Shown: one piece after another, positions 39,708 through 46,679 of the stretch | Position numbering within the stretch: the stretch's first letter is position 1 | Layout: every line of letters starts with the position of its first letter | From: Escherichia coli | GTDB taxonomy: Bacteria > Pseudomonadota > Gammaproteobacteria > Enterobacterales > Enterobacteriaceae | Strand: one strand, 5' to 3' | DNA length: 64,000 nt | NCBI RefSeq assembly: GCF_011045215.1 | Contig: NZ_CP049201.1 | Made by a program: the position numbers and the translations under genes | Notes under the pieces: generated by a model | The model's input: only the letters and a program-made list of their open reading frames with translations | Databases searched by the model: none | Told to the model about the DNA's origin: nothing

Positions 39708-39724
39708 TTTTGTGGAGAAAGTTG

Positions 39725-40069
39725 ATGCGTGATATGTATGAAGTTTTAGACCGCTGGGGAGCGTGGGCTGCAGCAGATAACAGTGGTGTGGACTGGCAGC
39801 CGATAGCAGCAGGCTTTAAGGGGCTTTTACCTCATGGTAAAAAAATACGCCTTCAGTGTGATGATGATGAAGGCATCATGATAGACGGCTGTGTTGCCCG
39901 CCTGTGTAAGTATAAACCAGACGAATATGAGCTGATCATTGCTCACTTCGTTATAGGTATTTCACTGCGTTCTATTGCGAAGAGACGCAGATGCTCAGAT
40001 GGAACAATCCGGAAGCAATTGCAGACTGCGTTAGGTTTCATTAATGGGGTTATGTACATGCTCAAGTAA
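39725..40069 (+). CDS. Q: late-gene antiterminator Q (933W/82-type)
   Basis: 114 aa from ATG with GGAG RBS (MRDMYEVLDRWGAWAA...), N-terminus resembles small Q antiterminators. Confidence 0.8.
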   Translation: MRDMYEVLDRWGAWAAADNSGVDWQPIAAGFKGLLPHGKKIRLQCDDDEGIMIDGCVARLCKYKPDEYELIIAHFVIGISLRSIAKRRRCSDGTIRKQLQTALGFINGVMYMLK

Positions 40070-41288
40070 TATTTGGCATTAATTTAAATAAAATACCGAT
40101 GATGCCTATGAATGTAGGCATCCATGCTAGTGATAATAAACTGTCAAGCACCTTATGACAAAAATCCTCATTGTCATTTAATTTTTTAATAGCCTCTTCT
40201 AAGCTCTCTTTAAGATCGCTGGTGTCATCCTTTATTCTATATCTTAATTGTCCAAAAAGTATTTCTTTAGAGTGTGAAATACGAGCAAGTTGTTTTTTTT
40301 GTGACACAATCATTGCAGATGTTATTATTGCTGTGATAATCAATCCAATTAAAGCAATAATCCAATCAGCTTTTGTTGTTAATTTGAAAATAGCAATTGA
40401 ACCAGCTAGTGAAATAGGTATTGCAAGAGCTTTGTTAGAAATTTCTGAAATTATTTTTGACAGTTTTTCTGAGTAATCGAGTTCAGCATCAACAACTTCT
40501 TTCCTTGCTTTATGAAAAGAAAATGCCGATATATAAGCAGCTAAGTTGTTCGTATAAAGTTCGCATATGAAATCCCACTTGTTAATTAACTCGACAAAGG
40601 AATTTCCATTTTTATTAACATACTCAATAACTGTGTTTCTGAAAGTGTTAATCTTTTCAATGTGATGGGCATCAGTAGTAGCTTCACTACTTACTAATGT
40701 TTTAACTAACTGAGTATTTACTGTTTTATCATTAAAAATTTCTTCTGTAATATTTGTTTCAATTACAGCAGAAGAAGATTTAGACTCTGAGTTTAAAATA
40801 AAGACTAAACGATAAAATGTACCTTTGCTATCTTTTTTTATATCATGGAAATGAGCAAGCATGGAAAGAGCATTGATTAGCTCACAAATGTCCTCAATTT
40901 TTTGGATATAAGAAGGTTTTGGTGTTTCTAATGAATAGAAATCATCCTCTATAATATAGAAATACTCTGGCATTATGCCTTTCTTGAGCGTGTTTATTTT
41001 TACAAACTCGTTTTTATTTTTATAAAAACGATTCGCACTTCCTTGTGAAATTTTAAACGAGTATGTAAGAAAATTTCCCTTTTCAGGAAAGTCTTCATAA
41101 TCATAAATTAAATGACCATCCACCTCTATTTCGTCAGCTGTACCAGCTTGAAAAGTAGGGTTCAAAATTCTTTTGAACAATGATTTTACGTCTGCATTAT
41201 AAGCTATACGCGCAGAAAACTTAGCCCCGTCAAAATGAGGATAGCTTGATAATCTATACAGATTAACTATTATACTAAAATCATTCAT
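40062..41288 (-). CDS. candidate defence effector: protein with soluble N-terminal domain and C-terminal transmembrane helices
   Basis: 408 aa, AT-rich; hydrophobic segments ALAIPISLAGSIAIFKL, WIIALIGLIITAIITSAMIVS and WMPTFIGIIGILFKL; start overlaps upstream gene stop (ATGA). Confidence 0.75.
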   Translation of the reverse strand: MNDFSIIVNLYRLSSYPHFDGAKFSARIAYNADVKSLFKRILNPTFQAGTADEIEVDGHLIYDYEDFPEKGNFLTYSFKISQGSANRFYKNKNEFVKINTLKKGIMPEYFYIIEDDFYSLETPKPSYIQKIEDICELINALSMLAHFHDIKKDSKGTFYRLVFILNSESKSSSAVIETNITEEIFNDKTVNTQLVKTLVSSEATTDAHHIEKINTFRNTVIEYVNKNGNSFVELINKWDFICELYTNNLAAYISAFSFHKARKEVVDAELDYSEKLSKIISEISNKALAIPISLAGSIAIFKLTTKADWIIALIGLIITAIITSAMIVSQKKQLARISHSKEILFGQLRYRIKDDTSDLKESLEEAIKKLNDNEDFCHKVLDSLLSLAWMPTFIGIIGILFKLMPNIT

Positions 41289-42451
41289 TCTTTATCTTCT
41301 TCATTACTCGGGTTATCAGTTTCTTTCAACGCTCTTCTTATCTTAGTTAATGCTTCAACAGGCAAATTATTAAATGTTAGGCTTTGGTTTTCGTCATCAT
41401 AATATATTTTAGCATCAGTTGTGACACCGAGTAAATCCTTGTCGAAGTGAAAGCTCAATGATGGGGTTTTATATATCACATTGCGGATTTTATCTAAGGA
41501 GTTTTTATTGATTACGAACTCTGATGGGATTCTGACTTCCTCACTATTGAGGTGTTTCATTAATTTATCAACAAGTTCTGTTTTTTCTTCCTCTTTTAAA
41601 TAGGACATATGGCCTGAAGCAAGCGATTCGATATCAGAAAGCCTTGCAGAGTGCTCGTTGTCAAATTGCTTTTCTAAGTATTTGATAACATCATTTCTAA
41701 ATGACTCTGCTTGATTTTTTAAAAGAGGTTCTTTCTTAAAGAAACGCCTTATTTCATCTGGTAACTTACGGGTTGCGCCTGCTGAAGCAATCCCCTTGTC
41801 ACATCCTAATGCTGCTATAAAATATGCTGCCGCTGACTGTCCCGTAGTTTTGCTTATAAAGCTTAGATAACTTAAGTCTGTTTTTTTTAAATCATCTGCT
41901 TTTTGGTATTCTTCATAATATCTGAAATTTATTTTTGCTGCTTGGTTAATATTACCAAGTTCTAAGTGAATCATTTCCTCTGGCTCTAAATTTTCACTAA
42001 TAGTTACGCCATTAGTTTTTTTGATCATTGTAACCAATAGATAACGGAAACCAGATAAAATATAATCAGTAAAAACAACATATCCTCCAGAAGCCCAAAT
42101 CTGCTCTTGAGCAGATTTATACATTTGTTTCATAACTTCCTTCGATAATTCAATGAAATCATTTGAAACAGATTGTTGAACTAAAGAGTATTTATGAAAT
42201 AGTTCTGGTATAGGGCCTTGTTTTGTTTTATTTTTAATAAAAACACCATAATGCGCTGAGTTCCCTTTTGAACCATACAAATCAATAACACCGTCTACTA
42301 ATTTTTTTACTATATCATTTGTTTTATCTAGTTCTGTATCACGAAGATTGTATGGTTTGGAGTGATCGAAGTCTTTATTAGATTCTTTTAAGAGCTCATG
42401 AACGATTACGTGGCGTATGCTTGCTTTGCTCATTTTTTTGGTCAATTCCAT
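41285..42451 (-). CDS. YejK/NdpA-like (NA37 family) nucleoid-associated-type protein
   Basis: 388 aa, AT-rich; blocks resembling E. coli YejK (IRHVIVHELLK; SGGYVVFTDY..FRYLLVTMIK...ISENL; YLSFISKTTG..AAYFIAALG); start may be the internal ATG at 42433. Confidence 0.75.
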   Translation of the reverse strand: MELTKKMSKASIRHVIVHELLKESNKDFDHSKPYNLRDTELDKTNDIVKKLVDGVIDLYGSKGNSAHYGVFIKNKTKQGPIPELFHKYSLVQQSVSNDFIELSKEVMKQMYKSAQEQIWASGGYVVFTDYILSGFRYLLVTMIKKTNGVTISENLEPEEMIHLELGNINQAAKINFRYYEEYQKADDLKKTDLSYLSFISKTTGQSAAAYFIAALGCDKGIASAGATRKLPDEIRRFFKKEPLLKNQAESFRNDVIKYLEKQFDNEHSARLSDIESLASGHMSYLKEEEKTELVDKLMKHLNSEEVRIPSEFVINKNSLDKIRNVIYKTPSLSFHFDKDLLGVTTDAKIYYDDENQSLTFNNLPVEALTKIRRALKETDNPSNEEDKE

Positions 42452-42550
42452 GCGGTTAAGCTAACAATTGTAAAGAGCATAATAAATTACTAACGCGTAC
42501 GCAAAAACTATCATAATCTGTTAAGAGTGGTTACTTCGCCACACAGCTTA

Positions 42551-42577
42551 AACCCGCCGTCGAGCGGTTTTTTTGTA
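42551..42577. terminator. hairpin plus T-run upstream of the AT-rich operon
   Basis: aaacccgccgtcgagcggttttttt: bulged stem flanked by A-run and T-run, possibly bidirectional. Confidence 0.4.
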
Positions 42578-42672
42578 CCTGTAAAACTGGTGCAGTACAG
42601 TAAACACGCTGGTGGTCGTGAATACTGACTTTTTATCTTGCTGGCTTTTTAGACAAGAGTTATTGGTATGTC

Positions 42673-42900
42673 ATGTTAACCAGAAGGGAAAAAGACATGC
42701 TAAAACAGCAAGATATGACAGAAACCGCCGCCGCAGTCCTTCATTTCTTACCTGCTGACAAGTGGGTAACGCCACGCATGATGACGAGAACTACCGGAGT
42801 AAGCGAAGCCCGGTGCCAGTTAATACTGACTCAGTTAGTTCTGGCGGGTCTGGCGAAGGATAACGGCGGGTACGGGAATAAATTCAGACGCTGCCAGTAA
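42673..42900 (+). CDS. small hypothetical protein, possible winged-helix DNA binding
   Basis: 75-aa ORF upstream of the methyltransferase gene. Confidence 0.5.
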   Translation: MLTRREKDMLKQQDMTETAAAVLHFLPADKWVTPRMMTRTTGVSEARCQLILTQLVLAGLAKDNGGYGNKFRRCQ

Positions 42901-43050
42901 TGGCGGTTTCCTGCTGTGAAAATGGGCGGCTGGTGGGTGTTGGTAGCACCTGCCAGCCATTCGCTCATGCTTACTGGTCACAAGCGAACCACGGCCCACT
43001 GCTTTAGCGCAAAAGCAGAGTGAGCCTACCAGAGTTACGCTTACTGATCC

Positions 43051-44103
43051 ATGAAAAATACTGTAAAAATAAACAGTGTTGATTTAATCAACGCTGATTG
43101 CCTGCATTTTATTCAGTCCTTGCCTGATGATTCCATTGATCTGATTGTTACCGATCCGCCGTACTTCAAAGTGAAGCCCAACGGCTGGGACAATCAGTGG
43201 AAAGGGGACGAAGATTACCTGAAGTGGCTGGACTACTGTCTGGCCCAGTTCTGGCGGGTACTGAAACCAGCCGGAAGCCTTTACCTGTTCTGTGGACATC
43301 GCCTGGCATCTGATATTGAGATCATGATGCGTGAACGTTTCAACGTGCTTAACCATATCATCTGGGCGAAGCCGTCCGGACGTTGGAATGGGTGTAATAA
43401 AGAAAGTCTGCGCGCATATTTTCCTGCCACAGAGCGCGTTCTGTTTGCTGAACATTACCAGGGGCCATATCGCGGCAAAAGTGACGGCTATGCGGCAAAA
43501 GAAAGGGAACTCAAACAGCACATAATGGCACCGCTGATATCGTATTTCAGGGATGCTCGTGCCGAACTGGGTATAACGGCAAAACAAATTGCCGAAGCCA
43601 CAGGTAAGAAAAATATGGTTTCCCACTGGTTTGGTGCCAGTCAGTGGCAGTTGCCGAATGAGGCTGACTATCGGAAGTTACAGGCACTGTTTTCCCGTAT
43701 AGCGGCAGAGAAGTTTCAGGAACAACAACTGGAACAACCACACCACCAGCTGGTGGCATCTTATGATTCACTGAATCGCAAATATTCTGAATTGCTGGAT
43801 GAGTTTAAATCTCTCCGGCGCTATTTCTCCGTATCAGTCTCCGTGCCTTATACCGATGTCTGGATGCATAAACCCGTTCAGTTCTACCCGGGTAAACATC
43901 CGTGTGAGAAACCTGCGGATATGCTCCGGCAAATAATCAATGCCAGTAGTCGACCTGGTGATCTGGTTGCTGATTTTTTTATGGGATCCGGTTCCACAAT
44001 AAAAGCAGCAATGGCGCTGGGGCGTCGGGCCTTAGGTGTTGAGCTTGAGTCAGAGCGGTTTAACCAGACAGTGAAAGAGATATACGAGCTGGTGGGGAAA
44101 TAA
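43051..44103 (+). CDS. DNA N6-adenine/N4-cytosine methyltransferase
   Basis: 350 aa with DPPY catalytic motif near N-terminus and AdoMet motif FFMGSGST near C-terminus (beta-class arrangement). Confidence 0.88.
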   Translation: MKNTVKINSVDLINADCLHFIQSLPDDSIDLIVTDPPYFKVKPNGWDNQWKGDEDYLKWLDYCLAQFWRVLKPAGSLYLFCGHRLASDIEIMMRERFNVLNHIIWAKPSGRWNGCNKESLRAYFPATERVLFAEHYQGPYRGKSDGYAAKERELKQHIMAPLISYFRDARAELGITAKQIAEATGKKNMVSHWFGASQWQLPNEADYRKLQALFSRIAAEKFQEQQLEQPHHQLVASYDSLNRKYSELLDEFKSLRRYFSVSVSVPYTDVWMHKPVQFYPGKHPCEKPADMLRQIINASSRPGDLVADFFMGSGSTIKAAMALGRRALGVELESERFNQTVKEIYELVGK

Positions 44104-44109
44104 TCTGGT

Positions 44110-44130
44110 GGCCACGTAGGTGGCCTTTTT
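44110..44130 (+). terminator. rho-independent terminator after methyltransferase gene
   Basis: stem ggccac/gtggcc, loop gtag, followed by ttttt. Confidence 0.7.
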
Positions 44131-44169
44131 ATTTCCATTACACAGCACCCGCATCTGCGAGGTGGGGTT

Positions 44170-44385
44170 ATGAAATCCATGGATAAGTTAACAACGGGTG
44201 TCGCCTATGGCACCTCAGCAGGTAGTGCCGGGTACTGGTTTTTACAGTTGCTCGATAAAGTCACGCCCTCACAGTGGGCGGCAATAGGTGTGCTGGGTAG
44301 TCTGGTATTTGGCTTGCTGACGTATCTGACAAACCTTTATTTCAAGATTAAAGAAGATAAGCGTAAGGCTGCGAGAGGTGAATAA
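44170..44385 (+). CDS. phage holin
   Basis: 71-aa two-TM protein with charged C-terminus, directly upstream of lysozyme. Confidence 0.85.
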
Positions 44386-44882
44386 TGTCGCCATCATTAC
44401 GCAAGGCTGTTGCTGCTGCTATTGGTGGTGGGGCTGTTGCCATAGCGTCTGTGCTCATCACTGGTCCGAGTGGTGACGATGGCCTGGAAGGTGTCAGCTA
44501 CATACCATACAAAGATATCGTTGGCGTATGGACTGTATGTCACGGACACACCGGAAAAGACATCATGCTAGGTAAAACGTATACCGAAGCAGAATGCAAA
44601 GCCCTCCTGAATAAAGACCTTGCCACGGTCGCCAGACAAATTAACCCGTACATCAAAGTCGATATACCGGAAACAACGCGCGGCGCTCTTTACTCGTTCG
44701 TCTACAACGTGGGTGCTGGCAATTTCAGAACATCGACGCTTCTTCGCAAAATAAACCAGGGCGATATCAAAGGCGCATGTGACCAGCTACGTCGCTGGAC
44801 ATACGCTGGCGGTAAGCAATGGAAAGGCCTGATGACTCGTCGTGAGATTGAGCGTGAAGTCTGTTTGTGGGGGCAACAATGA
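44385..44882 (+). CDS. phage lysozyme (T4 lysozyme/GH24 family) with N-terminal signal-anchor
   Basis: 165 aa; hydrophobic N-terminus ([18 protein letters not shown]) then lysozyme core with catalytic E-D-T spacing; ATG overlaps holin stop. Confidence 0.88.
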
Positions 44883-45346
44883 GCAGAGTAACCGCGATTA
44901 TCTCCGCTCTGGTTATCTGCATCATCGTCTGCCTGTCGTGGGCGGTCAATCATTACCGTGATAACGCCATCGCCTACAAAGAACAGCGAGATAAAAAAGT
45001 CAGTGAGCTGAAGCAGGCGACCGCCACCATCGCTGACATGCAGCAGCGTCAGCGTGATGTTGCTGCGATCGATGCAAAATACACGAAGGAGTTAGCCGAT
45101 GCGAAAACTGAAAATGAAACTCTGCGCGCTGATGTTGCCGCTGGTCGTAAGCGCCTGCGGGTCAATGCCAGTTGCTCCGCAGCCGTGCGTGAAGCCACCG
45201 GACCCACCAGCATGGATAATGCAACCAGCCCCCGACTGGCAGACACCGCTGAACGGGATTATTTCATCCTCAGAGAACGGTTGATGACGATGCAGAAGCA
45301 ACTGGAAGGGGCGCAGGAATATATCCGCACCCAGCGCATTAAGTAG
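44879..45346 (+). CDS. Rz: i-spanin Rz
   Basis: 155 aa with N-terminal TM and coiled-coil periplasmic domain; overlaps lysozyme stop. Confidence 0.85.
45099..45284 (+). CDS. Rz1: o-spanin Rz1 lipoprotein, embedded in Rz
   Basis: 61 aa in +1 frame inside Rz; lipobox LVVSAC; proline-rich. Confidence 0.8.
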
Positions 45347-45367: not shown

Positions 45368-45730
45368 GTGGTTTTTACTGAGCGCGGTGTACACGGTGGA
45401 ACATATGGCGGGAAGTTTGTTGCTTATGATTATGCAGCATGGCTAAACCCCGGATTTAAATATGCAGCCTATAAAGTCCTGGATGACTACTTCACCGGAG
45501 AACTTCAGCATCGCAACAGCTTAAGTGCGCAGCTCAATATGAAGTGTCATGAGTTTGATCAGAAAAAAGATATGGCGAGCTTCTGTGGACAAGGGCTGGC
45601 GGCATGGCGCTATACGAAGCCAGTGTTGGTCGCTGAGATTAACTCCCTGGCTAACCAGCTGCAGATAACGATCCCCGGGCTGTCCGGTATTTGCCGGTAT
45701 GAAATTACCGGAAGGCGCGGTCGTTACTGA
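45368..45730 (+). CDS. hypothetical phage protein
   Basis: 120-aa ORF after the lysis cassette. Confidence 0.55.
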   Translation: MVFTERGVHGGTYGGKFVAYDYAAWLNPGFKYAAYKVLDDYFTGELQHRNSLSAQLNMKCHEFDQKKDMASFCGQGLAAWRYTKPVLVAEINSLANQLQITIPGLSGICRYEITGRRGRY

Positions 45731-46184: not shown

Positions 46185-46679
46185 ATGGATCGAGAGTTAA
46201 AAAATCTGACGCTGAATATCAGTCAACTGGCGGCACTGTCAGGTGTACATCGCCAGACTGCTGCGGCAAGGCTGCAAAATCTACCCGTTGCAGGGGGGCA
46301 TGAAAGCAACCTCAAGCTTTATCGGGTGGTTGATATTGTGTCGGCATTTCTGGCATTGCCACCGCCGGTTGCAGAAGGCGAAATGGACGCGCATGAGCGC
46401 AAAGCCTGGTATCAGTCTGAACGTGAGCGTCTTAAGTTCGAACAGGAAACGGCACAACTCATTCCGGCCAGTGATGTCAGACGGGAGTTTGCCATCTGGG
46501 CAAAAGCGGTCGTGCAGGTGCTGGAGACATTACCGGATATTCTGGAACGTGACTGCGGTCTGCAGCCTGCCGCTGTGAGCCGTGTTCAGTCCATTATTGA
46601 TGATCTGCGCGATCAGATAGCCCTGCGGGTGACTGAAGCAGGTGCGGATGATGAGGAGGAATTACAGCAGGAGGAGTAA
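46185..46679 (+). CDS. terminase small subunit
   Basis: 164 aa with N-terminal HTH-like segment (LNISQLAALSGVHRQTAAARL) and acidic C-terminus; directly precedes large terminase. Confidence 0.8.
   Translation: MDRELKNLTLNISQLAALSGVHRQTAAARLQNLPVAGGHESNLKLYRVVDIVSAFLALPPPVAEGEMDAHERKAWYQSERERLKFEQETAQLIPASDVRREFAIWAKAVVQVLETLPDILERDCGLQPAAVSRVQSIIDDLRDQIALRVTEAGADDEEELQQEE

Follow-up and report, generated by a model that had tools for sequence, protein, structure and literature searches.

A prophage of Escherichia coli (assembly GCF_011045215.1, contig NZ_CP049201.1) carries a DNA methyltransferase gene just ahead of its lysis genes, which raises the question of what this enzyme methylates, when it is made, and how it is controlled. 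We analysed a 64,000-nucleotide stretch of this contig, hereafter the window, in which the gene occupies 43051..44103 on the plus strand and encodes 350 amino acids from an ATG start. The catalytic motif IV, DPPY, was read from the sequence and translation at residues 35–38 (43153..43164, plus strand), and the AdoMet-binding motif I, FFMGSGST, at residues 309–316 (43975..43998, plus strand). Motif IV before motif I is the order of the beta class. Pfam N6_N4_Mtase (PF01555) matched residues 29–341 with profile positions 1–220 of 221 (E = 5.4e-42), and the best NCBIfam and PADLOC matches were adenine-specific or type II methyltransferase models. Both motifs, their order and the Pfam match agreed with the original prediction of a beta-class amino-methyltransferase, and the protein belongs to the beta-class N6/N4 amino-methyltransferases. 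The same prediction held that no restriction endonuclease adjoins the gene, and this was also borne out: upstream lie a winged-helix ORF and the gene for an NA37-like protein next to that of its partner, and downstream a holin gene and a lysozyme gene. Pfam, NCBIfam, PHROG and PADLOC-type profile comparison detected no nuclease domain in any of them, so the label "orphan" is right; no trace of a cognate endonuclease gene was found beside the methylase, and the gene was not assigned to a type II restriction-modification system.

To which family the protein belongs was clear from full-length comparison. It was 81% identical to M.EcoGII from end to end (349 aligned residues; 2 gaps, none large) and 89% identical to the reconstructed ancestor Anc291. 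The supplement of PMC11551740 supplied the M.EcoGII sequence, and because both comparison sequences were machine-read from there and contain a few reading errors, the true identities may be slightly higher. M.EcoGII/M.EcoGI of E. coli O104:H4 C227-11 (Murray et al. 2018, PMC5778455) is, like the window gene, a prophage-borne adenine methylase of beta-class order and of the same length (349 and 350 amino acids). Phage 1720a-02, named as the carrier of a very similar enzyme (PMC5778455), has a methylase 93% identical to M.EcoGII and 81% identical to the window protein, and identity to PhiARM81ld_p56 of an Aeromonas linear-plasmid prophage was 53% over the full length. The annotated methylases of phages cdtI, mEp460 and SfV were 98–99% identical at the amino acid level (cdtI, 99.4%). 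At the DNA level, the genes of cdtI, mEp460, Ayreon and SfV were 96.5–98.7% identical, those of Stx2c phages 84%, and that of the Ec-U11 genome 100%. The gene was present in 1264 of 5426 complete E. coli genomes, about a quarter; NCBI already lists an identical protein from E. coli and Shigella sonnei, and the 90%-identity cluster of this protein has 4060 members. The full-length similarity, which included the central domain, and the Q, lysis and terminase genes around the methylase, as expected for an enzyme borne by a temperate phage or prophage, identify it as a member of the M.EcoGII family, that is, a common prophage gene of a kind already described.

The activity of this family is known from its characterised members. 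M.EcoGII methylates adenine in any context in double-stranded DNA, single-stranded DNA and RNA, modifies up to 99% of adenines, and thereby blocks many restriction enzymes (PMC5778455). It is encoded at a locus described as a cryptic prophage, is unexpressed in its own lysogen and leaves the chromosome unmarked, and its expression slows growth (PMC5778455). Anc291 methylated DNA and, without a motif, RNA (PMC11551740). Two much more divergent enzymes, PhiARM81ld_p56 (Aeromonas) and PhiOS31_p25 (Serratia), are described as non-specific or extremely relaxed in PMC7556043, which cites Dziewit and Radlinska 2016 for this; the homologues in phiP27, Morganella and "many Escherichia phage" are predicted there to be likewise non-specific. 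Since non-specificity is thus documented both very close to the window methylase and far from it within the family, we infer with good support from relatives at 81%, 89% and about 53% identity that the window enzyme methylates adenine in any context. The tested members of the M.EcoGII family are silent in lysogens and harmful when expressed (PMC5778455; PMC7556043; PMC12707154), and the position of the window gene between terminator-like sites in the late region suggests the same here. An anti-restriction role was put forward by those who characterised the relatives (PMC5778455; PMC12707154); the benefit appears to have been demonstrated in vitro or by plasmid protection rather than as an effect on phage fitness.

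The timing of expression was approached through the layout of the locus. The late region starts with the gene for a Q antiterminator of 119 amino acids (39710..40069, plus strand; Pfam Phage_antitermQ, 5e-44). Downstream of it, a terminator scan found two intrinsic-terminator-like sites on the plus strand, namely a hairpin with a T-run at 42556..42578 and a hairpin in the gap between the methylase and the holin at 44110..44135 (GGCCACGTAGGTGGCC followed by TTTTTATTTC). As had been predicted, the methylase lies directly before the lysis cassette (44170..45346, plus strand): its stop codon ends at 44103, the hairpin follows, and the holin ATG is at 44170. The cassette consists of a P21-type holin (44170..44385; Phage_holin_2_1, 2e-35), a lysozyme (44385..44882; Phage_lysozyme, 1e-45), and Rz (44867..45346; Phage_lysis, 4.5e-49) with an Rz1-like ORF embedded in it (45099..45284, from the ORF list). 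A DUF1441 ORF (46185..46679) and then the large terminase subunit follow downstream of the lysis genes.

This arrangement was recognised in other phages. Homology of the window to SfV and Ayreon begins at 42551, at the first terminator-like site, which forms the left edge of a module shared with SfV, Ayreon and Ec-U11 and is annotated in SfV as a terminator after Q; a terminator matching 44110..44135 is annotated between methylase and holin in SfV, Ayreon, N15 and phiKO2. The order terminator, small ORF, gap of about 150 nt, methylase, terminator and holin is common to SfV, Ayreon and Ec-U11. In 1720a-02 (Q, small ORF, leader, methylase), phiP27 and the Stx2a phage WGPS2, the order is kept up to the methylase; tRNA genes and stx then separate it from the lysis genes, whereas in the window the holin follows directly. 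The Hafnia and Morganella phages keep the order with an extra ORF between methylase and lysis genes. N15, phiKO2, PY54 and YDC107_1 have a winged-helix gene (gp51), the methylase and then lysis genes, and in N15 and phiKO2 the annotation places a late promoter and a terminator ahead of the methylase and a further terminator behind it. A methylase before the lysis genes was seen in SfV, Ayreon, N15, phiKO2, PY54, YDC107_1 and VHML as well as in the Hafnia, Morganella, Aeromonas and Vibrio phages, PhiARM81ld_p56 likewise directly preceding a holin. These results indicated that the methylase is the first gene of a late antiterminator-dependent unit in very different phages, from lambdoid to N15-like, and this place fits the lysogen silence reported for relatives. 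A consensus scan of the plus strand at 42452–42555 and just after Q gave no convincing Q-dependent late promoter, and the best candidate on inspection by hand was an 8-of-12 match (TTACTA-17-TATCAT). Since no such promoter was located and Q and the methylase module are set apart by a minus-strand insert of 2.4 kb, it is synteny that suggests Q-dependence of the methylase in the window.

The gap between the small ORF and the methylase was found to contain a structured 5′ leader RNA of 140 nt on the plus strand (42914..43053), which ends at the methylase ATG and was delineated by alignments, a covariance model and covariation. With 42914 as position 1, the model has four helices: P2 (15–28/32–45), P3 (47–52/70–75), P4 (79–82/111–114) and P5 (86–92/99–105). 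The leader is kept, with covariation, from lambdoid to telomere phages in at least seven genera (Escherichia, Hafnia, Morganella, Yersinia, Klebsiella, Vibrio and Aeromonas), always ahead of a methylase gene of this family. In an alignment of seven phages, which spans Hafnia (methylase 74% identical) and Morganella (64% identical), the gap showed long invariant runs and was more conserved than the protein. The leaders of N15-type phages, PY54, phiKO2 and VHML could be aligned too, with compensating changes in the stems, and the fold of the leader was more stable than those of shuffled sequences (z = −3.5). Two pattern scans of viral contigs yielded at least 120 loci and 39 loci, respectively. 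An ORF with DPPY lay no more than 420 nt downstream of the pattern in 117 of the first 120 loci; the three exceptions were an unrelated chance match, a contig end, and a methylase allele with APPY. The four-helix covariance model (R1) found a single copy in the window, at 42914–43053 (144.8 bits), and recovered every phage locus tested. Its matches were weaker in Vibrio ST2-1pr (39.6 bits) and Aeromonas phiARM81ld (29.2 bits), where the leader lies upstream of an extra ORF, Com-like in the latter phage, that precedes the methylase; the window has no such intervening ORF.

Covariation supported the proposed helices. After realignment, 27 of the 31 pairs changed on both sides, and the covariation score was 0.399, compared with 0.156 ± 0.008 for shuffled alignments and at most 0.134 when the partners were slid. 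The clearest pairs were 52:70 (C-G in 31 sequences, U-A in 23) and 80:113 (G-C in 32, A-U in 19). Because G-U pairs are frequent, the structure was assigned to the plus strand, which is that of the methylase mRNA. The helices were set by hand from a column-pair scan, since the varying length of the long hairpin left RNAalifold with poor or partial structures on plain MAFFT alignments, and they were tested after a model-based realignment, which favours structure. The slid-partner control and the independent MAFFT column scan agree, which argues that the covariation is real despite the model-fitted alignment. In addition, the invariant 5′ UGGGC can pair with an invariant GCCCA at 81–85. This pairing overlaps P4 by two bases, which implies a pseudoknot-like arrangement or a switch between two folds, and in the Aeromonas leader, a single sequence, both of its strands change together. 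A pairing of 5′ AUGGG with CYCRU at 51–55 was dropped since the P3 pair 52:70 covaries best.

The leader was neither a tRNA nor a known RNA family: ARAGORN called no tRNA in it, and a search of 8 kb against Rfam 15 gave nothing at E ≤ 0.1 for it. A 200-nt Rfam search around it returned chance-level minus-strand matches alone (E > 3), and nothing overlapped the leader in seven diverse loci. No recognisable Shine-Dalgarno sequence precedes the methylase ATG. A narrow literature search, weak as evidence of absence, did not find a description of a leader or riboswitch before M.EcoGII-family genes; at this locus, only the leader RNA and the ORF that accompanies it may be new.

The companion is a small winged-helix-like ORF of 67 amino acids (42697..42900, plus strand; 75 amino acids from an alternative ATG at 42673). 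It matched phrog_331, of unknown function (3e-26), and gave weak Pfam matches to winged-helix domains of the MarR/TrmB type. The ORF precedes the methylase in SfV, Ayreon, 1720a-02, phiP27, WGPS2, Hafnia and Morganella phages, and its exact sequence occurred on at least 1000 contigs. When a profile of the lambdoid small ORFs was run against just 17 proteins, it reached gp51 of N15-like phages at about 1e-4, and direct pairwise comparison with N15 gp51 gave 25% identity (E = 5e-6), so a relationship to gp51 is suggestive rather than firm. Pfam found no Com zinc-ribbon in the small ORF, which thus did not match control of the Mu com/mom type; the ORF between leader and methylase in the Aeromonas phage did match Zn_ribbon_Com (1.6e-6). 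We tentatively propose, at somewhat below even odds, that the leader (42914–43053) and the winged-helix ORF (42697–42900) form an undescribed post-transcriptional module that would gate translation of the methylase, which is predicted to be toxic and non-specific. Possible mechanisms are a fold that responds to a protein or ligand, or autoregulation by the methylase as an RNA-binding protein. The combination of companion protein, leader and sometimes a Com-like protein would recall the layered control of Mu mom.

Here, we propose a model of the locus by summarizing the above results. The methylase would be silent in the lysogen, as expected from its place in a Q-dependent late unit between two terminator-like sites before the holin. 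After induction, it would be made alongside the lysis and packaging functions, and replicated phage DNA would become heavily adenine-methylated before packaging. Progeny genomes would then carry protection against many adenine-methylation-sensitive restriction systems at once when they enter a new host, as the authors of the M.EcoGII study also proposed, at the cost of sensitivity to methyl-adenine-dependent nucleases. An enzyme of this kind is harmful to the cell and is therefore probably expressed under tight limits, with the leader RNA and the small winged-helix gene as the likely control elements. We assign a probability of roughly 0.8 to this explanation as a whole, in which an any-context methylase of the M.EcoGII family is made late, protects progeny DNA and is tightly controlled. 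The original view of a late-expressed orphan anti-restriction methylase therefore stands as regards the late position before lysis and the role, which has been proposed for relatives too, whereas the idea of an orphan with a recognition motif is not supported. Modification of host DNA in the lysogen, which had also been suggested, is likewise not supported, in view of the non-specific and lysogen-silent behaviour of the tested family members. A comparison of the methylomes of lysogen and cured strain had been suggested as a check; no lysogen motif is to be expected from an enzyme whose relatives act in any context, are silent in lysogens and are toxic when expressed. The absence of a strain-specific motif would accordingly be the expected outcome and no refutation, and a motif search in REBASE would be equally motif-less.

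Other explanations were weighed against this model. Site-specific enzymes of the beta class act at defined recognition sites, in some cases alongside a partner restriction enzyme. The window gene could likewise be an ordinary orphan methylase with one defined motif, possibly acting on the lysogen chromosome as well, as most N6_N4_Mtase members are site-specific and database names read "site-specific"; the public name of the protein, "site-specific DNA-methyltransferase", is however automatic and not a measurement. No solved structure was found for the M.EcoGII family, and its best relatives among solved structures, M.RsrI, M.MboIIA and CcrM, are site-specific. They matched the window protein (phmmer, E = 1e-13 to 7e-24) only in the catalytic core, at residues 9–114 and 282–341. 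The central region, residues 115–280, had no detectable similarity to them; this core and this difference also apply to M.HpyAVI/DpnA-type enzymes. About 19% of positions differ from M.EcoGII, and many of these differences fall in the central region, the presumed site of DNA contact. The full-length identity of 81–89% to enzymes shown to be non-specific, the non-specificity attributed in PMC7556043 to relatives at about 53–58% identity, and the unmarked chromosome of the M.EcoGII lysogen (PMC5778455) make a defined motif distinctly improbable. An inactive remnant in a decaying prophage is more doubtful still. M.EcoGII itself is encoded by what has been described as a cryptic prophage (PMC5778455), and a related metagenomic allele (L099) has APPY instead of DPPY. 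Against decay, the window ORF is full-length with both motifs intact, near-identical genes are carried by the plaque-forming phages Ayreon, mEp460 and SfV, the 90%-identity cluster numbers 4060 members, and the lysis and terminase genes of this prophage are intact.

The methylase might also be the self-protection part of a restriction-modification-like module with the two genes inserted on the minus strand between Q and the small ORF, an NA37/YejK-like gene (41285..42451) and its partner (40062..41288), both delineated from ORFs and family models. The pair lies 600 bp upstream of the methylase and matched the NCBIfam anti-phage models DS1_1 (5e-28) and DS1_2 (9e-29), in both cases below the curated cut-offs. 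By these matches, it resembles the anti-phage defences based on YejK-like nucleoid proteins (PANGU-like) that were recently reported (Science 2026, PMC13092281; bioRxiv 10.64898/2026.04.06.716658). Published defences of the nucleoid-protein kind, however, detect genome damage and make no use of methylation (bioRxiv 10.64898/2026.04.06.716658). The pair has a GC content of 30–33% compared with about 49% for the methylase gene, is transcribed in the opposite direction, and was present in 29 of 5426 E. coli genomes as against 1264 for the methylase, which argues strongly against a unit of the methylase with the NA37-type sensor and partner of the DS1_1/DS1_2 system. Ec-U11 has other genes in place of the pair despite its 100% identical methylase, the genes of the pair are absent from the matching place in SfV and Ayreon, and the interval from Q to the terminator held different cargo in each phage examined. 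We concluded that the pair is independent cargo; of the alternatives, a joint module is the most improbable. Finally, the main role of the enzyme could be other than anti-restriction, such as regulation of the phage cycle, host shutdown, or RNA methylation late in infection. M.EcoGII also acts on RNA and single-stranded DNA (PMC5778455), many phage orphan methylases may be regulatory according to a review (PMC12707154), and the elaborate conserved leader with its companion protein suggests that dosage matters. Nevertheless, the literature examined held no supporting experiment for the M.EcoGII family, and the place as first late gene together with the broad protection in vitro fits anti-restriction more simply. 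Such a main role is unlikely, although the least so of the alternatives, and the two kinds of role are not mutually exclusive.

The preferred reading, a late-made methylase of any context under tight control, has a parallel in phage Mu. The window methylase has no sequence relationship to Mom, which is not itself a methyltransferase. The likeness to mom/com is one of mode of working rather than ancestry: both concern a loosely specific DNA modification that is late, silent in lysogens, toxic if artificially expressed and under layered control (PMC12707154). The control part is Com in Mu, whereas the candidates in the window are the structured leader and the winged-helix protein. Promiscuous adenine methyltransferases of the alpha class, as cited in PMC5778455 from Drozdz et al. 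2012, are also linked to phages and have little or no specificity. Their motif order is opposite (FxGxG first, DPPY last), and they are therefore a separate architecture and a different family.

Thousands of copies exist of the characterised enzyme family to which the methylase belongs, a family already on sale as a reagent for chromatin footprinting, and finding this one changes little in itself. The automatic name "site-specific DNA-methyltransferase" of the cluster is misleading. Methylome-motif surveys of lysogens will miss the activity of this methylase, and virion DNA from induced cultures is the more apt material. Given that the gene is present in roughly one in four complete E. coli genomes, the temperate phages released from them may broadly resist adenine-methylation-sensitive restriction; conversely, the same phages may be sensitive to methyl-adenine-dependent nucleases. 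If functional, the leader RNA and its companion protein would explain how phages restrain a dangerous methylase, and the two would add a new class of phage riboregulator.

A structured leader RNA of 140 nt (window 42914–43053, plus strand) adjoins the ATG of the methylase gene (43051–44103) on its 5′ side. The leader, with covariation, was kept across lambdoid, N15-like, VHML-like, Vibrio and Aeromonas phages, and an ORF encoding the catalytic DPPY motif was found downstream of the leader pattern in 117 of the first 120 matches listed. No counterpart of the leader was present in Rfam 15. Numbering from window 42914, an invariant UGGGC at positions 10–14 (42923–42927) is complementary to an invariant GCCCA at positions 81–85 (42994–42998). 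Because this pairing shares two bases with helix P4 (79–82 with 111–114), the RNA may either adopt a pseudoknot or switch from one fold to another.

A small hairpin, ACUGU...ACAGU, is located within the coding sequence at 43060–43081 on the plus strand, inside methylase codons 4–11, and was retained at the nucleotide level in most homologues. Together with the absence of a Shine-Dalgarno sequence, this hairpin may play a role in the initiation of methylase translation. A weak match to the leader model was still detected in the distant relatives Aeromonas phiARM81ld (L006, 2731–3077) and Vibrio ST2-1pr (L015, 2227–2500). In phiARM81ld, the Aeromonas phage being the only one in which the Pfam test was applied, the leader is separated from the methylase by an ORF resembling the zinc-ribbon protein Com of Mu, which overlaps the methylase start. 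This arrangement points to an additional layer of translational control.

The leader and the methylase have a constant partner in lambdoid phages, a winged-helix-like ORF of 67 aa (42697–42900, plus strand; alternative start at 42673) that matches phrog_331. Its relationship to gp51 of N15, phiKO2 and YDC107_1 and to ORF59 of PY54 was weak, and the phiP27 copy is annotated in RefSeq as a TrmB-family regulator.

In public records, the exact window protein is named "site-specific DNA-methyltransferase". This name is probably wrong, since the tested activity of the M.EcoGII family is non-specific. An allele in a viral contig (L099, 4072–5121, minus strand) is nearly identical to M.EcoGII and carries APPY in place of DPPY in the catalytic motif, a change that may have inactivated this copy naturally.

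Between Rz and a DUF1441 ORF, which is followed by the large terminase subunit gene, a plus-strand ORF of 120 aa (45368–45730) matched phrog_10441, gave a partial match to Rha/anti-repressor-type regulator families, and may be a truncated regulator gene.

On the minus strand, a two-gene insert (40062–42451) with a GC content of 30–33% encodes an NA37/YejK-like protein (388 aa) together with its partner (408 aa), each showing weak similarity, below the cut-off, to the NCBIfam anti-phage models DS1_1 and DS1_2. The insert is rare, being found in 29 of 5426 E. coli genomes, and is similar to recently reported nucleoid-protein-sensor defences. Comparison of window 40070–42550 with the intervals of related phages (L001, 6800–8446; L003, 2718–3500; L007, 1614–3152; L008, 1324–3152) indicated that the cargo between the late antiterminator gene Q and the terminator preceding the small ORF varies from one phage to another, consisting in the relatives of a protein with a LAPAL motif, a nuclease of the GIY-YIG type, or uncharacterised minus-strand pairs. 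This interval appears to be a hotspot at which accessory or defence genes insert.
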